Below are positions 13,499-41,436 of a stretch of 64,000 bases of DNA, one piece after another. Source of the stretch: a virus (taxonomy: Duplodnaviria; Caudoviricetes). Within the stretch, counting starts at the first letter, position 1; the number at the start of each line of letters is the position of its first letter. The position numbers and the translations under genes were made by a program. Where the stretch lies: positions 96,001 through 160,000 of the IMG/VR virus record IMGVR_UViG_3300037424_000485; one strand, 5' to 3'. The notes beneath the pieces were generated by a model. That model worked only from the letters and a program-made list of their open reading frames with translations. It made no database searches and had not been told where the DNA came from.

Positions 13499-14380
13499 AT
13501 GGTATCGTCAAAAACAGATGTTGAAAAACTACAAAAAGAGGTGTCTCTAGGAGTAGATGAAATCATCTCTGGTATCGATCTCACAGATATTCGTGCCTCT
13601 GGTATTATCATCACCGTAGGTGGAAAGCGCGTAAGGCTTGAGGTTGCTGAAGAGCAGATAGTTGAAGAAGATGCAATTCGTAAAGAACTGACTGAAAAAT
13701 TCAATGAGAAGCTTCAGTCAATTCGTAGCTTCGTTAATGAGAAGGCTATGAGTATTGAAAATGTACTCTCCACATATCGTAATGATTACGAAAAGAAAGA
13801 AAAAGCTCTTGATATTCGTCTTTCAGAGGCTAATATCATGCCAGACATTACACGCTCTCACTCATACAAGGGACTTTCTGTTGTTAAGGGTGGAGGGCCT
13901 ACTTATGCTGGTAGGGCTGATGTGTTTACATGGATCTATCGCACCACATATAAACCCACTAGGTGGAATGGCATTCCTCTAAATCAAAATTTTGCAAAGA
14001 AGATGATTACACCTATCATTATTGAACTTACAACTGAGAGAGATAAAATTCTTGCAATTCGTGTCAAAACATATATTGGAGATAGGGATTTTAGTCACTA
14101 TCACAACAATTGTTGGGGTGAATGGAAATATAGTGCAGAGATAGTAAAGACACCTGATGATATCCTACGTGTTTGTGAAACAGCATCTGCTGTACTTGAT
14201 AATATCAATGGAAGGTCTTTAGCTCAGAGTGCTCCGAATGGTTTGCCTAGAGCATCTACCGTTGAAAAAAATGTTATCAAAACAAATCCAGGGGCATCAA
14301 CTGTTGTATCGAGTAATAGAGCAGATGAAAGGGCCGGTCTTGATATGACTGTAGAACCTGATTCTGGATGGACAACTTGA
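13499..14380 (+). CDS. Prokaryotic E2-like (UBC-fold) conjugating enzyme with N-terminal coiled coil
   Basis: FSHYHNNCWG resembles the HPH..CWG/CLG catalytic segment of Prok-E2 families; downstream VLDNINGRS resembles the L..PN..S element; context next to ThiF and JAB. Confidence 0.65.
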   Translation: MVSSKTDVEKLQKEVSLGVDEIISGIDLTDIRASGIIITVGGKRVRLEVAEEQIVEEDAIRKELTEKFNEKLQSIRSFVNEKAMSIENVLSTYRNDYEKKEKALDIRLSEANIMPDITRSHSYKGLSVVKGGGPTYAGRADVFTWIYRTTYKPTRWNGIPLNQNFAKKMITPIIIELTTERDKILAIRVKTYIGDRDFSHYHNNCWGEWKYSAEIVKTPDDILRVCETASAVLDNINGRSLAQSAPNGLPRASTVEKNVIKTNPGASTVVSSNRADERAGLDMTVEPDSGWTT

Positions 14381-29216: not shown

Positions 29217-30400
29217 TCAGCCTTTTAAAGCAGCGATTGGTGAAAGTTTGTATACTACTTTCACCAAATCCAGTTGGGATGAAATAACTTTTTCTATATC
29301 CTTATACGCACCAGCGGCCTCATCCAAATCAGCTTGATTTCGGATACCATGAACCACACCGATATCATCAAGACGCTTGATCTCATCCCCAATACCAATC
29401 TACGTTGAGCATCCTTGCGCCCCATTGCACGACCCGCTCCATGGGAGCAAGACATGAATGAATCTGGATTGCCTAAACCCTCGACAATATATGAGTTAGA
29501 CCCCTGAGATCCAGGAATTATACCAACTTCTCCTTTCTTAGCAGAAGTAGCCCCTTTTCGATGAACCCATACATTCTTACCAAAGTGATTTTCCGATATG
29601 CAAAAGTTGTGATGGATGTTGATCATCTCGTTAGGGAAAGATACATATTCCCCTTCATACTTATCAACACAATTGTTAACAACTTCCATGACACGGAACA
29701 TCATCTTCTTACGAGATAAGAAAGCAAATTCAGTACAATAATTCATATCAGTAATATAATCACGTCCCTCATCCGTATCCCCTGGCAGCCAAGCCAGATC
29801 TTTAGGAGCACCAGTATGCCATTTATCATTAAATTTTTGAGCTAAATTATTGTAATGCTTGGCAACTTTACCACCCAAGTTACGAGATCCAGAATGTACC
29901 ATGATCCATAAAAACCCATCTTTATCACGCTGTAACTCGATAAAATGGTTGCCACCTCCCAGAGAAGAAAGCTGATATCTTGCTGACTCATATTCAACAG
30001 CTACAGGGTAATTAAAATCTAAATCAGGCATGTCCATATCTTCTACAGGTTCTTTATTATTCCAACCTAGACCCATAGGAACAACTTGACGAACAGCGTT
30101 CATAATGGATTTTAAGATGTCTTTGGAAATAGGGCCTGAATATTCTGATTTAACAGCACACATACCACAGCCAATATCCATACCCACTGCATTAGGAATT
30201 ATCACATCCTCACATGCTATAACACCACCAATCGGCATACCATATCCCATGTGAGTATCCGGCATTAATGCTATATGGCGGTGCATAAATGGAAGGTTTG
30301 CTAAAACAGTCGCTTGGTCTATTGCTCCTTGCTCTGGCTCATTACACCAAGATTTTATAGGCACTCTATTTCCGGTTATTACTCGCATTTTATTTACCAT
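29217..30400 (-). CDS. rtcB: RtcB RNA ligase; a 1-nt frameshift at the G run 29387-29390 separates the C-terminal DEA.GAYK motif
   Basis: MPDTH.GYG.PIG, VG.DIGCG, GGGNHFIE, HSGSR, HRKGAT, SHGAGR; the shifted frame continues DEIKRLDDIGVVHGIRNQADLDEAAGAYKDIEKV...PIAALKG. Confidence 0.9.
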
Positions 30401-32859: not shown

Positions 32860-33142
32860 AGATAAATGTTTTCTGTGTTAGGGGTAAGATAACCCTATCG
32901 TAGATTCATAACAACCATCTAAGCTTGTATACTATGGATATTATGCCCTCCACACATTGGAGGGCGCGGGATCATCACTGCCCATTCCACCCATCATCTT
33001 TTATATGGTCGAGGATAGACACACTACCGTCTGGATTCTTCAAGGCTACAGATCCTGTCTGTATATCATATACAACACCCTACACTTTTCGGCACAACTT
33101 ATTCATCATGCTATTCATACTATTACCAACTTCTACATTCAT
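32860..33142 (-). pseudogene. Decayed phage gene with in-frame stops
   Basis: GGAG RBS; MMNKLCRKV-stop-GVVYDIQTGSVALKNPDG continues in frame; more stops follow. Confidence 0.4.
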
Positions 33143-33559: not shown

Positions 33560-34063
33560 TCAAGGATTATTTCGCATCCCTTGGATGATTTTACTTACAA
33601 CTTGACCATCAACGGCCTTACCAAAATGTTTAGTAACCATACCAACAGCTTGCATCTTGTTTTTCAGAGCACCAAAATCAATATTATCTTTAATGAACTT
33701 GATAACATCTTCTTCAGATACTTTTTCAGGTAAAAGACCATCAAGAATATTAACATATTCAGATGTTGAAGGATCTTCCCCTTTAGCAGTTAGCAATTCA
33801 ATCTCAGATTTCATTAATTTCTCAATAATACTAAGCATTTGAATGTCAGTTGGATGTTCATTTGCTTTGAGATTCAAGCGAGGAATTTCACCAAGGATCA
33901 TTCTTAACGTATCTTTCATAACAACATCTTTTTCTTTCATAGCATTTGTAAGAGATGTTCTTAGCTTCACTTCTAGCTTATTCATTTTTAAATCCTTTTT
34001 ATCATTGTTATGTCTTATCATATCTAAGGGTATAACCCCTTCGTTAATTCTAAAATATATCAA
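33560..34063 (-). CDS. GatB/YqeY-domain protein
   Basis: AMKEKD....LRM.LGEI, E..IL..LLPE.VSEE, MG.VTKHFG..VDG..VS. Confidence 0.85.
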   Translation of the reverse strand: MIYFRINEGVIPLDMIRHNNDKKDLKMNKLEVKLRTSLTNAMKEKDVVMKDTLRMILGEIPRLNLKANEHPTDIQMLSIIEKLMKSEIELLTAKGEDPSTSEYVNILDGLLPEKVSEEDVIKFIKDNIDFGALKNKMQAVGMVTKHFGKAVDGQVVSKIIQGMRNNP

Positions 34064-34312: not shown

Positions 34313-34606
34313 TTACAGCTTTGAAGCTGTCTTTAATGTGCGTGTCCTAAAAAACCCATCAAATTCAGGTACTTCCAATACAAGCAATCTAGCATATCTA
34401 CTAGTGTAGTTATTATTCAATTTAAAACCATCTTCACTAATAGTTTCAAAACTAATATGCCATCTAACCCTTTCAAATATTGCCTTTGCAGAGTATGTAT
34501 CAAAACCTCTTCTTTTTACTTCTTCTGCAAATCGTTTGAATGCTTTAAAAACAATAGGATTGTTTTTATGATATTCCCAAAATTTAGCATCAATCACATC
34601 CGACAT
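34313..34606 (-). CDS. Conserved-looking small protein
   Basis: F..YH..NP.V...F, YSAKAIFERVRWH, FKLNNN....YARL pattern. Confidence 0.7.
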   Translation of the reverse strand: MSDVIDAKFWEYHKNNPIVFKAFKRFAEEVKRRGFDTYSAKAIFERVRWHISFETISEDGFKLNNNYTSRYARLLVLEVPEFDGFFRTRTLKTASKL

Positions 34607-34632
34607 ATTTTCCTCATCTGTTATTGTTTTAA

Positions 34633-34707
34633 TGGTGCGCCTACTAGGAATCGAACCTAGATAGTCTATTTAGAAGACAGATGCACTATCCATTGTACTA
34701 TAGACGC
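34633..34707 (-). tRNA. tRNA-Arg(UCU)
   Basis: Cloverleaf, CT-TCT-AA, CTAGG-TTCGATT-CCTAG, CCA. Confidence 0.9.
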
Positions 34708-34716
34708 ATATAATTT

Positions 34717-34795
34717 TGAGCACCAGAAGGTAATCGAAACTTCGTATTCTGTATGTAAAACAGACATTCTTCCATTGAACTAAGGGAGCATATAC
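34717..34795 (-). pseudogene. Degenerate tRNA-Val(UAC)
   Basis: Intact anticodon arm TCTGT-TTTACAT-ACAGA; acceptor stem and T arm mismatched; no CCA. Confidence 0.5.
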
Positions 34796-37081: not shown

Positions 37082-37130
37082 ATAATTATTTCATATCCCA
37101 CGTGGGATAAACCGCCATATTTTATTAAAA

Positions 37131-37291
37131 GATTGAACAGGCAGGAGTCGAACCTGCATATCAGGATTACGTTAGGCTGTTACCTGAAAAGTGGTTTGGC
37201 CCATGAGCCTAGAAGATGTCGTTTCCGTTTCATCCCCATCCATATTGGTTTGCCCCACACTCCCCTATACCAGTTCGGGTACAATTCAATC
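37131..37291 (-). ncRNA. tRNA-like RNA 1 with greatly extended central arm (161 nt)
   Basis: GATTGAAT/GTTCAATC closing stem, TACC/GGTA D-like hairpin, TCAGG/CCTGA variable-like arm, GCAGG-TTCGACT-CCTGC T arm. Confidence 0.55.
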
Positions 37292-37456
37292 TTTATTTCT
37301 TTTATCTTATCCATAACCTACGGACAATGTTTCTTCCAATCCATTTATTCATACTACGTTTGAATATAGGAATTAATGACCCTTTCATTAGAGATCTAAC
37401 AATAGCTCTAATGTCATTGTTTATAATATTTAGTTTAAAAAGAGTCATTTTATTCC

Positions 37457-37660
37457 TTATGCCTCATGGTAAATTTCTAGTTTCCGTTGGATAGTTTCGT
37501 AAGACTCAGAACAGTAAAAAGGCTCATCTGAACCAGCTACAAAAACGGAACACTTTTCAACATCTAGCTCATGGATGGCAACTATATAGGATGTTAAAAT
37601 GGATAATTTCTTGCCATTATGGTTTGTAAATAGTTGTTTCTGCATAACAATACACTCCAT
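37457..37660 (-). CDS. Small hypothetical protein
   Basis: Co-oriented ORF. Confidence 0.5.
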   Translation of the reverse strand: MECIVMQKQLFTNHNGKKLSILTSYIVAIHELDVEKCSVFVAGSDEPFYCSESYETIQRKLEIYHEA

Positions 37661-37746
37661 ATCCCTTTACCAATTTGGACAATATTAAATCAATTAACAC
37701 TATCTATGCACTGTAACATAACCTATGTTTAAAAGCAATAGTTATG

Positions 37747-38820
37747 TTACAGATTTATATATTTATCAAAGAACCATTTCCTACCCTTATTAGAGATAGC
37801 ACTTGTGACATCTTTAACAATAAGGCCACTAGCAATTAGAGTATCTACCTCTTCTTTCATTACATCTGTAACAACCCATTTCAGAAACTTACCCGTATTG
37901 GATACATCAGGAGTAATGTTATTGGCTTCAAATATATCTCTTATCCCCTGCTCAAGCCTGTTCTCTGTTACTGCGTAATCAACAAACTCTTTAACGGATG
38001 CCAATTTCTCAGGATCGATAGGAGCGAGGCACTTTACCTTAGATCCTGAATGCTTTTCGCCCTTAACTTTAAAACGAAACATATTGCCATTGATATTAGA
38101 AGACCAAACTGCACCCTCACCAATAATAGAACCATTTTCCGAGGTGGCCCCTAACTTTTTAGCAACAGGACATTCTCTTTCTATCTCATTGGTGATATCA
38201 ATTAACTCATTCTGAGATAATTTGGGATCGTTAAGATCTACCTCTATATTATATGTCCCAAAATAATCAATATGGAACATTCTGATATCATGGTATTTCT
38301 CTACATAAAAATCAAACCAATTTGTTTCTTTTTCATTCTCATCAAGTGGGTTAATTGTATGTTTAACACCAAAGATAACAAACATCTTTTCTAATTGGGA
38401 TACACCAACACCACCTGTAATGCCTTTTCCACACCATTCGCCATATATAGAAACAACACCTTCAGTAAGATCATACGCTTTAACGAGCAGGCTGAACAAT
38501 TCTTTAAAAACAACCTTGTTTTTCTCAACGTAACATGCAAAGCCTTTGTTATCATCGGGAATAGTTATAATCCTTTCTCTGGATTGTACCCACATATCAC
38601 CAGTGGTAATATCAAAACATACCCCTGCATTTGTGCCATGGATTTTTACTCTACCTGTGAAATTAATTACAGGGAGTATTTTGTTGTAATCATATATGAC
38701 TTTTCCTTTATCATCCTTGCCATTATATCTAAGGTGATCTACAAGACCCCTTACAGCAGACCCATACACACTTATGGATGGAAATTTAATACAATTCATT
38801 ACAATACCTCGTCTATACAA
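37747..38820 (-). CDS. ATP-dependent RNA ligase, Rnl2-like
   Basis: Motif I KIHGTN, IYGEWCG, F.IF.V, GEGAVW, FKVKG.K. Confidence 0.82.
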   Translation of the reverse strand: MYRRGIVMNCIKFPSISVYGSAVRGLVDHLRYNGKDDKGKVIYDYNKILPVINFTGRVKIHGTNAGVCFDITTGDMWVQSRERIITIPDDNKGFACYVEKNKVVFKELFSLLVKAYDLTEGVVSIYGEWCGKGITGGVGVSQLEKMFVIFGVKHTINPLDENEKETNWFDFYVEKYHDIRMFHIDYFGTYNIEVDLNDPKLSQNELIDITNEIERECPVAKKLGATSENGSIIGEGAVWSSNINGNMFRFKVKGEKHSGSKVKCLAPIDPEKLASVKEFVDYAVTENRLEQGIRDIFEANNITPDVSNTGKFLKWVVTDVMKEEVDTLIASGLIVKDVTSAISNKGRKWFFDKYINL

Positions 38821-39011
38821 TTATGGCTCATGTCATCTTGATGCCAAGCTCTACATTTTGAACATTTTATGCATCTACCAACCGCAACATCCATTTGCTT
38901 ATTATATTTTACAGATAATCCTATATATATCGCAAATAGTATGAATAAAATAGATACTGCCCATACTATAATACCTGTCACTGTACAGATGTCGGTTAGA
39001 ATTGTCAACAT
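38799..39011 (-). CDS. Small membrane-anchored protein
   Basis: N-terminal TM plus CxxCxxC. Confidence 0.45.
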   Translation of the reverse strand: MLTILTDICTVTGIIVWAVSILFILFAIYIGLSVKYNKQMDVAVGRCIKCSKCRAWHQDDMSHNCIDEVL

Positions 39012-39019
39012 TTAATTAC

Positions 39020-39235
39020 CTATTTTACAAGTTTCTTACCATCAACAGCCAGGATATCTACATTGCCTGTATAGGTATCAATTTCTACATCAAATTTTAC
39101 TTCATATAATGCATACGAGAATTCTCTTTTTACATCATTTGAGAGCGAAAGACCATATTCGTCTTCAATACTATTAATAAAACTATAATTCTCATCTTTA
39201 CTGCTATGACAATACATAACTGATTTAATTTTCAT
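39020..39235 (-). CDS. Small hypothetical protein
   Basis: Co-oriented ORF. Confidence 0.55.
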   Translation of the reverse strand: MKIKSVMYCHSSKDENYSFINSIEDEYGLSLSNDVKREFSYALYEVKFDVEIDTYTGNVDILAVDGKKLVK

Positions 39236-39328
39236 TTCGAATTCACATTTTCCTTAATTAACATTTAGCCGATCTTAATAGATCGTTACCAACATACGCT
39301 ACGTGGAAGCAGTTAATTATTATATGTT

Positions 39329-39400
39329 TCGGAATGAGAGGGGTCGAACCTCTGATCTCTAGTTCCCAAAACTAGCGGCATACCACTTGCCTACACCCCG
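39329..39400 (-). tRNA. tRNA-Pro(UGG), CCA not encoded
   Basis: CGGGGTG/CATTCCG, CTAGT-TTTGGGA-ACTAG, AGAGG-TTCGACC-CCTCT. Confidence 0.85.
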
Positions 39401-39409
39401 GTATAATTT

Positions 39410-39748
39410 TTACCAGTAGAACCAACCAGCATCTTTAATCCATTTATCAAATGAATAACCATCATAATCCATATGACGTAAGACACGTGAAGTCTCTACT
39501 TTATCTTTTGCACGTCTTTCACGATTTAACATCCGTGTATAGGACTTTGGCGCATGGCCATCCCATCCATAACCACTTTTAGTTTCTCTATGGTACTTTG
39601 AAACAGTGTATTTATCATCTCTAATTGAACAATTTCTTGAACAATGAATACCAAAACACCGATCATTAACACATTGCTCTATGCGATAACAATATGTTTC
39701 TAAAATTTGGTCGTTAGTGACCTTTTTTCTTCTGTATGTTCTTGACAT
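39410..39748 (-). CDS. Basic hypothetical protein
   Basis: MSRTYRR start; AGGAG RBS. Confidence 0.6.
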   Translation of the reverse strand: MSRTYRRKKVTNDQILETYCYRIEQCVNDRCFGIHCSRNCSIRDDKYTVSKYHRETKSGYGWDGHAPKSYTRMLNRERRAKDKVETSRVLRHMDYDGYSFDKWIKDAGWFYW

Positions 39749-39839
39749 TTTGAATCTCCTATATATGTATAATTACATATTCGAGTATCAAAATTATTAT
39801 AAATTGTTTTCATTATATTTTTCCTTACATTTTAAAAAT

Positions 39840-39913
39840 TGGGAGGCCCGGATGGTTACGCTCCATCGTTGATCGGTTAAAAGCCGAATATTCTACTATT
39901 AAATTACGAACCC
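39840..39913 (-). tRNA. tRNA-Lys(UUU), atypical T loop
   Basis: TCGG-CTTTTAA-CCGA, GATGG-AGCGTAA-CCATC, CCA. Confidence 0.75.
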
Positions 39914-40189
39914 ATACATTTCTTACTAGCATGGATTCATAATTCATCCATACTTTATTATTTACCTTGACCTCTTGACTTCTTTTTCTTAGCACTCTTG
40001 CTCTTGAGGTTGGTATTTTCACTATTACCGATTGAAGTTTTCTTCTTACGGCTAATATCTGATTTTTTTGTTGTTGATGCTGTCTTCGTCTTTGCCATTT
40101 TAATTCCCTTATTATAACGTTAAATTAATAGTATATTTTACTTCTGACTTTGTGTCAACTTATATTTACCATATATATAATATACCACA

Positions 40190-40500
40190 CTGTTAGCCTT
40201 CGCTATTGAGCAGGGTATCAGCTTCATCCCGCTCGTCAACCGACAAATGGCTGTAATGGTTCCAGCCGGAGTAGGTATTAAACCAATGACACATCCAGGT
40301 TTTCCCTTGGCACCGCATACAGGATCTTGCATCAACTCCGTCACAGGTCGGACAGCCTTTTTCCAGATATGGAATACAACTATAATTTCTTAGCTACTTT
40401 ATCAACACTTCTCAGGAACCACCCTGTCAGTTTATATCAATTTTGCCAACGGTAACTTACTAGATTCAACTGGTTAGGTGTCCTCTCTCAGTAACCTTAA
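40190..40500 (-). ncRNA. Candidate GC-rich structured RNA (about 300 nt)
   Basis: CCGAC/GTCGG, GGAGT/ACTCC, GGCTG/CAGCC, GAGC/GCTC, TAGC-GAAG-GCTA helices. Confidence 0.4.
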
Positions 40501-40597
40501 ATTTGTGAATAGGGTTGGAGTCTAACCAACTAACCTAATTACGGATTTAGGTAAATCTACATGTTATCCTAAGGTTCATGTAATCACTATATTCTTT

Positions 40598-40684
40598 TGG
40601 AAGAAGATGGAGGTATCGCGCCCCTACGTTTTACCGTACCCTAGGGTTCAAGCCTAGTTTGTAATAACTTTTACGGCACCTTCC
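40598..40684 (-). tRNA. tRNA-Ser(UGA)
   Basis: CTAGG-CTTGAAC-CCTAG, long variable arm, CCA; atypical T loop. Confidence 0.75.
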
Positions 40685-40769
40685 TAACAATCAATTAAAG
40701 GACACGAATATTATCTACCCTTCGTTATTTAAGATTAGTCGGTTGGCAGACTAATCTCCTAAAAACTTC

Positions 40770-40847
40770 TGGTGCGCCTGATAGGAATCGAACCCATGCA
40801 AATCCCAACTCTTCAGGATGGTGCTCTTCCAACTGAGCTACAGACGC
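40770..40847 (-). tRNA. tRNA-Phe(GAA)
   Basis: GCGTCTG/CAGGCGC, CT-GAA-GA, TTCGATT, CCA. Confidence 0.82.
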
Positions 40848-40858
40848 ATATACTTTAA

Positions 40859-41008
40859 AAACAGAATGTAGGAATCGAACCTACCAATTCGGGATCATAC
40901 CCCGATATAAACCAATAATCCAACTTATTTAAAATATTAACTAGTATCAATATTAAATGTTGGTGGTCACTAGTGTACTAGCATGTTACCATAACATCTT
41001 TTCTGCTT
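40859..41008 (-). ncRNA. tRNA-like RNA 2 with extended central arm (150 nt)
   Basis: AGCAGAA/TTCTGTT, TGTT/AACA, ACCA-CCAAC...GTTGG...TGGT long arm, TCGGG/CCCGA, GTAGG-TTCGATT-CCTAC. Confidence 0.55.
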
Positions 41009-41014
41009 TAATTC

Positions 41015-41104
41015 TGGTGGGGGCGCATAGAATCGAACTATCCCGGCAGCCACCTACTTTGTTTTACCGAATGGTTTTACAGACCACTTGTAGGAAACGA
41101 CCCC
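41015..41104 (-). tRNA. Non-canonical tRNA-Tyr(GUA) lacking a D arm, with long variable region
   Basis: GGGG/CCCC acceptor, GTGGT-CTGTAAA-ACCAT, TAG-TTCGATT-CTA, A73-CCA; CCTAC can pair with GTAGG in the variable region. Confidence 0.6.
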
Positions 41105-41118
41105 ATAATCTTTAAAAA

Positions 41119-41236
41119 TGGAATAATAAGAAGTCCATAGAGTCTCCCAACTCTAATTCGCACCTGGGAGAAGATACCGATCTAACCGACTAAGCCCTAT
41201 TCGTAGGGAATTATCTTCAGACCTCTTCTTATATCC
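41119..41236 (-). ncRNA. Candidate structured RNA ending in CCA (118 nt)
   Basis: TAAGAAG/CTTCTTA, GAAGATA/TATCTTC, CCCTA-CGAA-TAGGG, TCGGT/ATCGG, TCCCAG/TTGGGA. Confidence 0.5.
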
Positions 41237-41436
41237 AAAAAGCTATATAGTGGTATAGCCAATTGATGAAATTGTTCACCTCACTATACAATTTAATTCA
41301 AAATTATTTGGCTTTTGTTCTCAGAAGTACCATAACTCCTACAACTGGATTATCCAGAAGATTTTAATTAGTTATTCCGTCAACTACCATGTATCATTAA
41401 ATTCTTTATCTACTATACTTTAACTATTTTATAATG

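Follow-up and report, generated by a model that had tools for sequence, protein, structure and literature searches.

An uncatalogued RNA family with a tRNA-Leu frame and a pseudoknotted core in a phage tRNA cluster

Element 1 and its family

The DNA analysed here (the window, 64,000 nucleotides in all) comprises bases 96001-160000 of a 204-kb uncultured virus record, IMGVR_UViG_3300037424_000485, and all coordinates are window coordinates unless stated otherwise. The phage carries the T4-type markers gp32, an Rnl2-type RNA ligase, RtcB and a long-tail-fibre-like protein. The tRNAs of the window all lie on the minus strand and span approximately 34.0-42.9 kb; ARAGORN calls eight and Rfam 11 above threshold, with several weaker ones besides. 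Inside this cluster, and in the same orientation as the tRNAs, lie two long tRNA-like RNAs, here called element 1 and element 2, the former 49 nt upstream of tRNA-Leu(UAG) and the latter ~11 nt upstream of tRNA-Phe. An earlier note on this DNA had described them as two RNAs of the same architecture. Both are indeed present, although their frames are of different types, that of element 1 being a Leu-like class II frame and that of element 2 not; the minus-strand location of all elements is added here, as the note gave no strand. CCA is encoded by 12 of the 14 decoding tRNAs of the phage (the other two are a Val-like gene and a tRNA-Pro that adjoins a ribozyme) and by neither element 1 nor element 2. 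The parts of element 1 are as follows.

37130-37292 (-): element 1, the whole tRNA-Leu-framed RNA and family member; aligns with 16 homologs (covariance model R1, 151.5 bits, E 3e-40)
37282-37288 (-): acceptor 5' strand TGAATTG; 7 of 7 acceptor pairs covary in the family
37134-37140 (-): acceptor 3' strand CTGTTCA, paired with 37282-37288
37263-37279 (-): D arm of tRNA-Leu type, 3-bp CCC/GGG stem and 11-nt loop GAACTGGTATA; the stem covaries (CG/GC, CG/UA, GC/CG)
37258-37262 (-): anticodon-position stem, 5' strand GAGTG, paired with 37189-37193
37189-37193 (-): anticodon-position stem, 3' strand CACTT, paired with 37258-37262
37238-37249 (-): 5' strand of helix a (37247-37249), then the conserved junction AAUAUGGAU (37238-37246)
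37212-37237 (-): hairpin H, 7-bp stem GGGGATG/CATCTTC and variable A-rich loop; 6 of 7 pairs changed on both sides
37206-37211 (-): pseudoknot 5' strand UAGGCU, directly after hairpin H, paired with 37173-37178
37161-37187 (-): variable-arm hairpin TCAGG/CCTGA with 17-nt loop UAACAGCCUAACGUAAU; all 5 stem pairs changed on both sides
37173-37178 (-): pseudoknot 3' strand AGCCUA, in the middle of the 17-nt variable-arm loop, paired with 37206-37211
37141-37157 (-): canonical T arm GCAGG-TTCGACT-CCTGC; the stem covaries in the family

The acceptor of the window copy forms six of its seven pairs, with one U-U mismatch, and the helix is prolonged by 6 bp between the leader (37289-37294) and the trailer ATCTTT (37128-37133). 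U8 and A9 follow the acceptor, and the D loop reads GAACUGGUAUA in RNA letters. Where the anticodon loop belongs, the 5-bp stem closes an insert of ~65 nt that folds as a three-way-junction module, helix a (3 bp) finding its partner at 37200-37202. Between element 1 and tRNA-Leu(UAG) there is also a perfect palindromic hairpin, AUCCCACGUGGGAU, at 37090-37115 (-).

No Rfam family matched element 1 at either gathering or permissive thresholds, whether the window or the single elements were searched, and only weak tRNA hits were returned. Homologs were sought by blastn of element 1 against 50,697 phage records, followed by motif scans built from the conserved blocks. The sole blastn match was an unannotated 140-nt stretch of cyanophage S-CRM01 (76.8% identity, E 2e-17), located between tRNA-Ala and tRNA-Val; the RNA there occupies NC_015569.1 135443-135606. 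The motif scans yielded further homologs on IMG/VR contigs, metagenome contigs and one 1.2-kb contig of a metagenome-assembled genome; the last was the one true member found in a scan of bacterial genomes, the nine other pattern matches there being due to chance. The family comprises 17 distinct sequences, which score 128-177 bits with R1, and its members always lie within or beside tRNA arrays, on the tRNA strand. The parts of element 1 that the earlier note had listed (acceptor, D arm, insert, TCAGG/CCTGA hairpin, T arm, no CCA) are confirmed, and well beyond chance; all helices are kept in the 16 homologs via compensatory changes.

On the alignment of the 17 sequences, 98.1% of the 690 cells of the proposed structure hold standard pairs, and 31 of the 41 pairs have changed on both sides; 96.7% of cells were paired in the first MAFFT alignment of 15 sequences. 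The covariation score is 0.84 as compared with 0.23 in shuffles, none of 500 shuffles reaching it, and controls in which the 3' partner was shifted by 1-3 columns show a pairing of only 38-50%. Covariation is seen in every helix, namely the acceptor, the D stem, the anticodon-position stem, helix a, hairpin H, the variable-arm hairpin and the T stem. The anticodon-position stem is paired in 100% of cells, with three pairs changed on both sides, helix a covaries as GYC/GRC, and 16 of the 17 members have G.U as the second pair of hairpin H.

The module is tied to the variable-arm loop by a 6-bp pseudoknot. All 17 sequences pair at the six positions, three of which covary (CG/UA; UA/GC/AU; AU/CG/GC/UA). 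The consensus is CUAGCU/AGCUAG and the window copy reads UAGGCU/AGCCUA, with the variants CUAGC/GCUAG, UAGGC/GCCUA, UUAGC/GCUAA, UUGCGC/GCGCAA, CUUGC/GCAAG and CGCGC/GCGCG found across the family. As the pseudoknot was absent from the model that built this alignment (A4), its pairing is not a product of model fitting. The sequences flanking the 3' strand in the variable-arm loop are UAACAGC and ACGUAAU; neither varies among the first 15 members, and one member added later reads AAACAGC in place of the former. The insert segments UGGAUnAAG and RAAAC are largely conserved, as is the junction AAUAUGGAU, several positions of which are invariant among the first 15 members. Approximately 35 nucleotides of the insert and loop are more strongly conserved than the stems of the frame. 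Element 1 is a member of a well-supported, conserved and uncatalogued RNA family with a pseudoknotted core, and nothing resembling this family was found in the papers searched on tRNA mimics and viral structured RNAs.

A tRNA-Leu frame without an anticodon loop

The D arm of the family (U8-R9, a 3-bp stem and the loop GAAYUGGUAKA) is of the bacterial tRNA-Leu type, and the most conserved features of the frame are this Leu-type D arm, the G18G19-containing D loop and the T loop. With canonical class II tRNA-Leu (RF00005), element 1 shares the 7-bp acceptor, U8, the 3-bp D stem, the GAAYUGGUAKA loop, the variable-arm hairpin and the T arm. It differs in that the 7-nt anticodon loop and U33 are missing, the variable-arm loop is of 17 nt and pseudoknotted, and no CCA is encoded. 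The components of the tRNA elbow (acceptor, D and T arms, with G18G19 and the T loop) are present and covary in element 1, and are present at the level of sequence in element 2. A 5-bp anticodon stem on a 7-nt loop with U33 is absent in element 1, as the stem closes a 65-nt junction instead. The claim that there is no anticodon loop thus holds for element 1, and so does the reading of this RNA as a tRNA mimic, in the sense of a conserved tRNA-framed RNA unable to present an anticodon. Its score with RF00005, 15.1 bits, is below the 29-bit gathering threshold, and none of the ARAGORN runs (default, intron mode, low stringency) produced a credible call of a tRNA or a transfer-messenger RNA (tmRNA) for the elements.

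The earlier note had also considered class II tRNAs with short introns, in which case the insert would be excised and the halves religated by RtcB or Rnl2 to give a decoding tRNA. Both enzymes are encoded by the phage, as the note stated, and belong to a large toolkit of RNA-handling genes.

29294-30400: RtcB
37747-38820: Rnl2-type ligase
33560-34063: YqeY-like protein
13520-14257 and 34403-34765 (genome coordinates, outside the window): Ro60/TROVE protein and CCA-adding-type nucleotidyltransferase

In addition to these ligases, an intron is suggested by ARAGORN, which in intron mode reads element 1 as a tRNA-Val(AAC) with an 83-nt intron at position 32. We rejected this call, as its 'anticodon' comes from the invariant pseudoknotted loop. 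In none of the 17 members can a 7-nt loop with U33 be regained by cutting out one contiguous piece, nor does any such cut give an anticodon that is consistent across the family; moreover, the insert is structurally conserved and pairs with a loop that would belong to the exon. The insert borders are conserved in the family (GGUG/U-GGAU... and ...RAAAC/YACC, the slash marking the border) and form a 9-nt / 6-nt internal loop beside a 3-bp helix, with neither a group I core nor a bulge-helix-bulge motif. A group I intron would not fit into the ~65 nt of the insert, and no intron family of Rfam matched in element 1. RtcB was found neither in the complete S-CRM01 genome nor on four other carrier contigs, and splicing by RtcB is disfavoured because S-CRM01 carries the RNA without it; the proposed religation by this enzyme fails for the same reason. 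We therefore regard intron-containing tRNAs as a very improbable explanation.

Two further models in the earlier note, tmRNA-like and Y-RNA-like adaptors, found no support either. tmRNA and the bacterial Y RNAs (YrlA) are also non-decoding, with a tRNA-like elbow joined to other structured domains. However, ARAGORN finds no tmRNA, G3.U70 is absent and no open frame is conserved. Neither element has a YrlA match in Rfam, the sole YrlA hit (15.8 bits against a threshold of 69) falling at 40823-40886, mostly over tRNA-Phe. The ends of YrlA lie at its Ro-binding stem and not at an acceptor. Ro60 itself is present in this phage, but not in S-CRM01 or the four other carriers. An insert that codes for a protein or a tag peptide was rejected, since frames and stop positions differ between family members. 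Hammerhead, HDV, pistol, twister and K-turn readings of the module gave no topological match, by eye or with Rfam, and for the 11-nt tetraloop-receptor (UAUGG / UAAG) the strand order is wrong.

The closest relatives in kind are the stable RNAs encoded in the tRNA clusters of T4 and T5, which, like both elements, retain the acceptor and T arm while another structure replaces the anticodon loop. T5 RNA1 (NC_005859.1 30501-30644) and RNA2 (32959-33083) lie in the tRNA cluster on the tRNA strand, as do the elements here, and in the T5 record RNA1, RNA2 and RNA3 each bear the label 'tRNA-like stable RNA with unknown functions'. RNA1 is thus annotated as a stable RNA, whereas the elements of this phage are known from sequence alone. 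RNA1 shares with element 1 the Leu-type frame, including a UG-CCG-GAAUUGGUAGA-CGG D arm, the T arm and the acceptor; the Leu-type D arm is matched by element 1 and not by element 2. The layout is also the same, with a stem at the anticodon position that closes an insert (~47 nt) and a hairpin before the T arm. RNA1 is the best match of R1 in T5 at 38.8 bits, equal to a true tRNA-Leu (the best match in T4 is the tRNA-Leu gene, 38.2 bits); its score comes from the frame alone. The insert of RNA1 is unrelated to that of element 1 in sequence and fold, and the 6-bp variable-arm pseudoknot has no counterpart in it, a 3-bp possibility at most being present.

In T4, the corresponding RNAs are species 1 (rnaC, NC_000866.4 70908-71046) and species 2 (rnaD); these RNAs C and D derive from the tRNA region and have no known role (PMC3014915). 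T4 rnaC has the same layout as element 1, and the loop of its hairpin before the T arm (CGUCAA) could form a pseudoknot with UUGACG, which lies upstream in the central domain; at these sites the rnaC homolog of Yersinia phage fHe-Yen9-01 has CAUCAA and UUGAUG, one compensatory pair. The design principle would be that of element 1, but the T4 pseudoknot rests on this single covarying pair. There is no detectable sequence homology between rnaC and element 1; R1 gives a 24-bit partial match to the frame, and rnaC has no Leu-type D arm.

Among the loci that carry family members, R1 picked up further long Leu-frame RNAs without an anticodon loop. Three of these share the acceptor UAGUCAGG and the D arm and carry unrelated inserts, and a fourth RNA is tRNA-framed without an anticodon.

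L014:3378-3489 (-): Leu-frame RNA, unrelated insert
L014:3980-4130 (-): Leu-frame RNA, unrelated insert
L017:7115-7248 (+): Leu-frame RNA, unrelated insert
L030:6300-6488 (+): anticodon-less tRNA-framed RNA, 189 nt, with CCA encoded at its end

The frames of the two L014 RNAs and the L017 RNA are 70-83% identical and their inserts 12-29%. Different inserts on near-identical frames suggest that it is the insert which carries specificity. On two of these unrelated phage contigs, ARAGORN also calls a tRNA-Asn with the anticodon AUU (L017:2405-2478 and L030:349-424); A34 is unusual among bacterial-type tRNAs.

Element 2 and its neighbours

We read element 2 as, most probably, another RNA of this general kind, with unrelated cargo. 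Its parts are as follows.

40859-41008 (-): element 2, tRNA-framed RNA with an unrelated insert of ~75 nt
41000-41006 with 40861-40867 (-): acceptor, 6 of 7 pairs
40983-40997 (-): D arm ATGT-TATGGTA-ACAT, perfect
40970-40981 (-): small 5-bp hairpin
40911-40967 (-): long irregular hairpin, ~57 nt
40889-40905 (-): hairpin TCGGG-GTATGAT-CCCGA
40868-40884 (-): T arm GTAGG-TTCGATT-CCTAC, perfect

These parts, and the missing CCA, are as the earlier note had described them, save that the insert folds as two hairpins and not as one arm. The frame is not of the Leu type, having a 4-bp D stem and a 7-nt D loop. The minimum free energy of the fold is -41.2 kcal/mol (z = -4.0), with none of 200 dinucleotide shuffles as stable. 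Given the intact stems and this strong fold, a functional RNA is the likeliest reading. R1 matches the 3' part only (15 bits), as does the Rfam tRNA model (20 bits against the 29-bit threshold).

The earlier note had suggested building a covariance model and searching phage genomes for covariation, and this is borne out for element 1 by 17 members with compensatory changes. For element 2, no homolog was found when phages were searched by blastn, when all loci fetched were searched by blastn and nhmmer, or among the contigs of relatives identified through the gp32 protein (47-73% identity); searching the viral contigs of IMG/VR for the pattern of hairpin plus T arm gave chance matches only. The tRNA island is not syntenic in the gp32-linked relatives that were fetched, and no close relatives of the phage were found in IMG/VR with Rnl2 or gp32 peptides.

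The absence of homologs from every collection searched would also fit a decaying tRNA gene with an AT-rich palindromic insertion, or a tRNA-His decoder with an extra arm at the junction of D and anticodon arms. Decay is at odds with the intact D arm, T arm and six of seven acceptor pairs and with a fold far more stable than that of shuffles, and the insert is not a genome repeat, no copies of it being found within this genome. The decoder variant would use UCGGG-GUAUGAU-CCCGA as its anticodon arm, with the anticodon AUG reading the His codon CAU. Here the claim of a missing anticodon loop becomes ambiguous, since the pre-T-arm hairpin has a 7-nt loop, G-U-AUG-A-U, that includes U33 and A37 and is formally a possible anticodon loop, albeit 75 nt from the D arm. 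Run at low stringency, ARAGORN reads the 3' part as a tRNA-His(AUG), and tRNAs with A34 are called in related material (the tRNA-Asn(AUU) of L017 and L030). However, that call has a poor 5' half, with 4 of 7 acceptor pairs and no D stem, the Rfam score is well below threshold, and element 2 is without the CCA that most decoding tRNAs of the phage encode. Taken together, we consider decay or decoding possible but doubtful.

A third, weaker case had been suggested at 40505-40595 (-). The fold of this degenerate tRNA-like stretch is no more stable than chance would give (z = -1.2), its T loop (TTAGACT) is non-canonical and Rfam has no match to it; we do not retain it.

Several other features of the cluster deserve mention. 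Two divergent class II tRNA-like genes with encoded CCA escape both default ARAGORN and Rfam at threshold: 41015-41108 (-) resembles a tRNA-Tyr(GUA) but has a T stem of 4 bp and a long acceptor (25 bits with Rfam tRNA-Sec), and 40598-40684 (-) is Ser(UGA)-like, with the odd T loop GCGAUAC. Upstream of the Tyr-like gene, at ~41110-41260 (-), there is long-range complementarity (AAGAAG...CUUCUU). An HDV-like ribozyme at 39257-39328 (-) begins at the base directly after the discriminator of tRNA-Pro (39329-39400); it scores 40.8 bits with Rfam HDV-F-prausnitzii against a threshold of 44 bits (E 1e-6 on the short stretch). The layout is that published for the tRNA-linked 'theta' ribozymes. Cleavage at tRNA-Pro would give a 2',3'-cyclic phosphate, needing end repair before CCA addition.

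A proposed tRNA chassis with an exchangeable insert

For element 1 we lean, by a modest degree, towards an RNA that does not decode and whose tRNA chassis bears an effector module. The tRNA-Leu chassis retains the acceptor, D and T arms and hence the elbow, and in place of the anticodon loop it presents the three-way-junction module, locked to the enlarged variable-arm loop by the 6-bp pseudoknot. Both elements would be transcribed together with the tRNA array. The chassis would then provide autonomous folding, recognition by tRNA-handling enzymes and metabolic stability, while the insert, as the working part, would bind a protein or small ligand of the host or the phage. Gene family, secondary structure with its pseudoknot, Leu-type frame, lost anticodon loop and lack of an encoded CCA are observed for element 1; transcription, processing, stability and binding are what we infer from sequence for the elements. 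Such an arrangement would be the natural counterpart of the engineered 'tRNA scaffold' RNAs, whose anticodon arm carries a grafted aptamer (e.g. PMC3753655). The logic would be the same, although those RNAs are man-made, whereas the cargo here also engages the variable arm by way of a pseudoknot, and an extended helix often closes the ends.

That helix is among the points that weigh against an effector on a tRNA chassis. The terminal helix runs 3-14 bp past the acceptor in 6 of 13 members (window, L009, L019, L029, L013 and L030), whereas it does so in none of the 74 canonical tRNAs that were taken from these loci, from T4 and T5, and from this genome. It pairs the 'discriminator', which argues against a free NCCA end in those members and speaks against ordinary RNase P / RNase Z maturation; they may have closed ends or follow a different processing route. 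In addition, no protein-gene neighbour is kept across the loci of the family, and element 2, a single sequence, has no comparative support. T5 RNA1 and T4 species 1 RNA have been without an assigned function for decades, so that an effector role is something we infer.

Alternatively, the tRNA frame itself could be the effector, the RNA serving as decoy or competitor towards a factor that identifies class II tRNAs by their body or elbow and does not read the anticodon. Such a factor might be LeuRS, RNase P, a modification enzyme or a defence nuclease directed against tRNAs, and the knotted insert would only block decoding and stiffen the molecule. The Leu-type D arm, G18G19 D loop and T loop, being the most conserved parts of the frame, are as such a decoy would have them, and the discriminator is A in most members of the family; A73 matters for bacterial LeuRS. 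The presence of RtcB, the Rnl2-type ligase, the CCA-adding-type enzyme and Ro60 in the phage also fits a conflict over tRNAs. On the other hand, A, C, G and U all occur as the discriminator, which is base-paired in the members with an extended helix, and CCA is not encoded. Conservation of the insert and loop above that of the frame stems is unexpected for a mere plug, and unrelated inserts on near-identical frames point to the insert as the carrier of specificity. We rate a frame decoy, the main rival, as distinctly the less probable explanation, and prefer a chassis that carries an effector.

A bolder version of the chassis reading is that the module of element 1 is a true aptamer or catalytic core, delivered by phages on a tRNA-Leu chassis. 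The idea draws on the ~35 highly conserved nucleotides, the G.U pair of hairpin H and the three-way junction, and we offer it as speculation. If true, phages would in general use tRNA frames with interchangeable inserts to express small effector RNAs, and T4 species 1 and T5 RNA1, puzzles for 50 years, would be part of that system.

Element 1 is a conserved, uncatalogued variant of a long-known and still unexplained kind of phage RNA, and the distinctive trait of the new family is the pseudoknot between the variable arm and the module at the anticodon position. Annotation of phage tRNA clusters usually relies on tRNA finders, and these pass over such genes; the S-CRM01 copy is unannotated, and Rfam has no model for it. 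RNAs with the same frame and different inserts suggest that tRNA-framed RNAs are a broad class among phages, of which the unexplained stable RNAs of T4 and T5 show only the tip. As S-CRM01 and Synechococcus LC16 are a cultivable phage-host pair with a family member, function is directly testable, and identifying what the inserts bind would open a new side of phage-host RNA biology.

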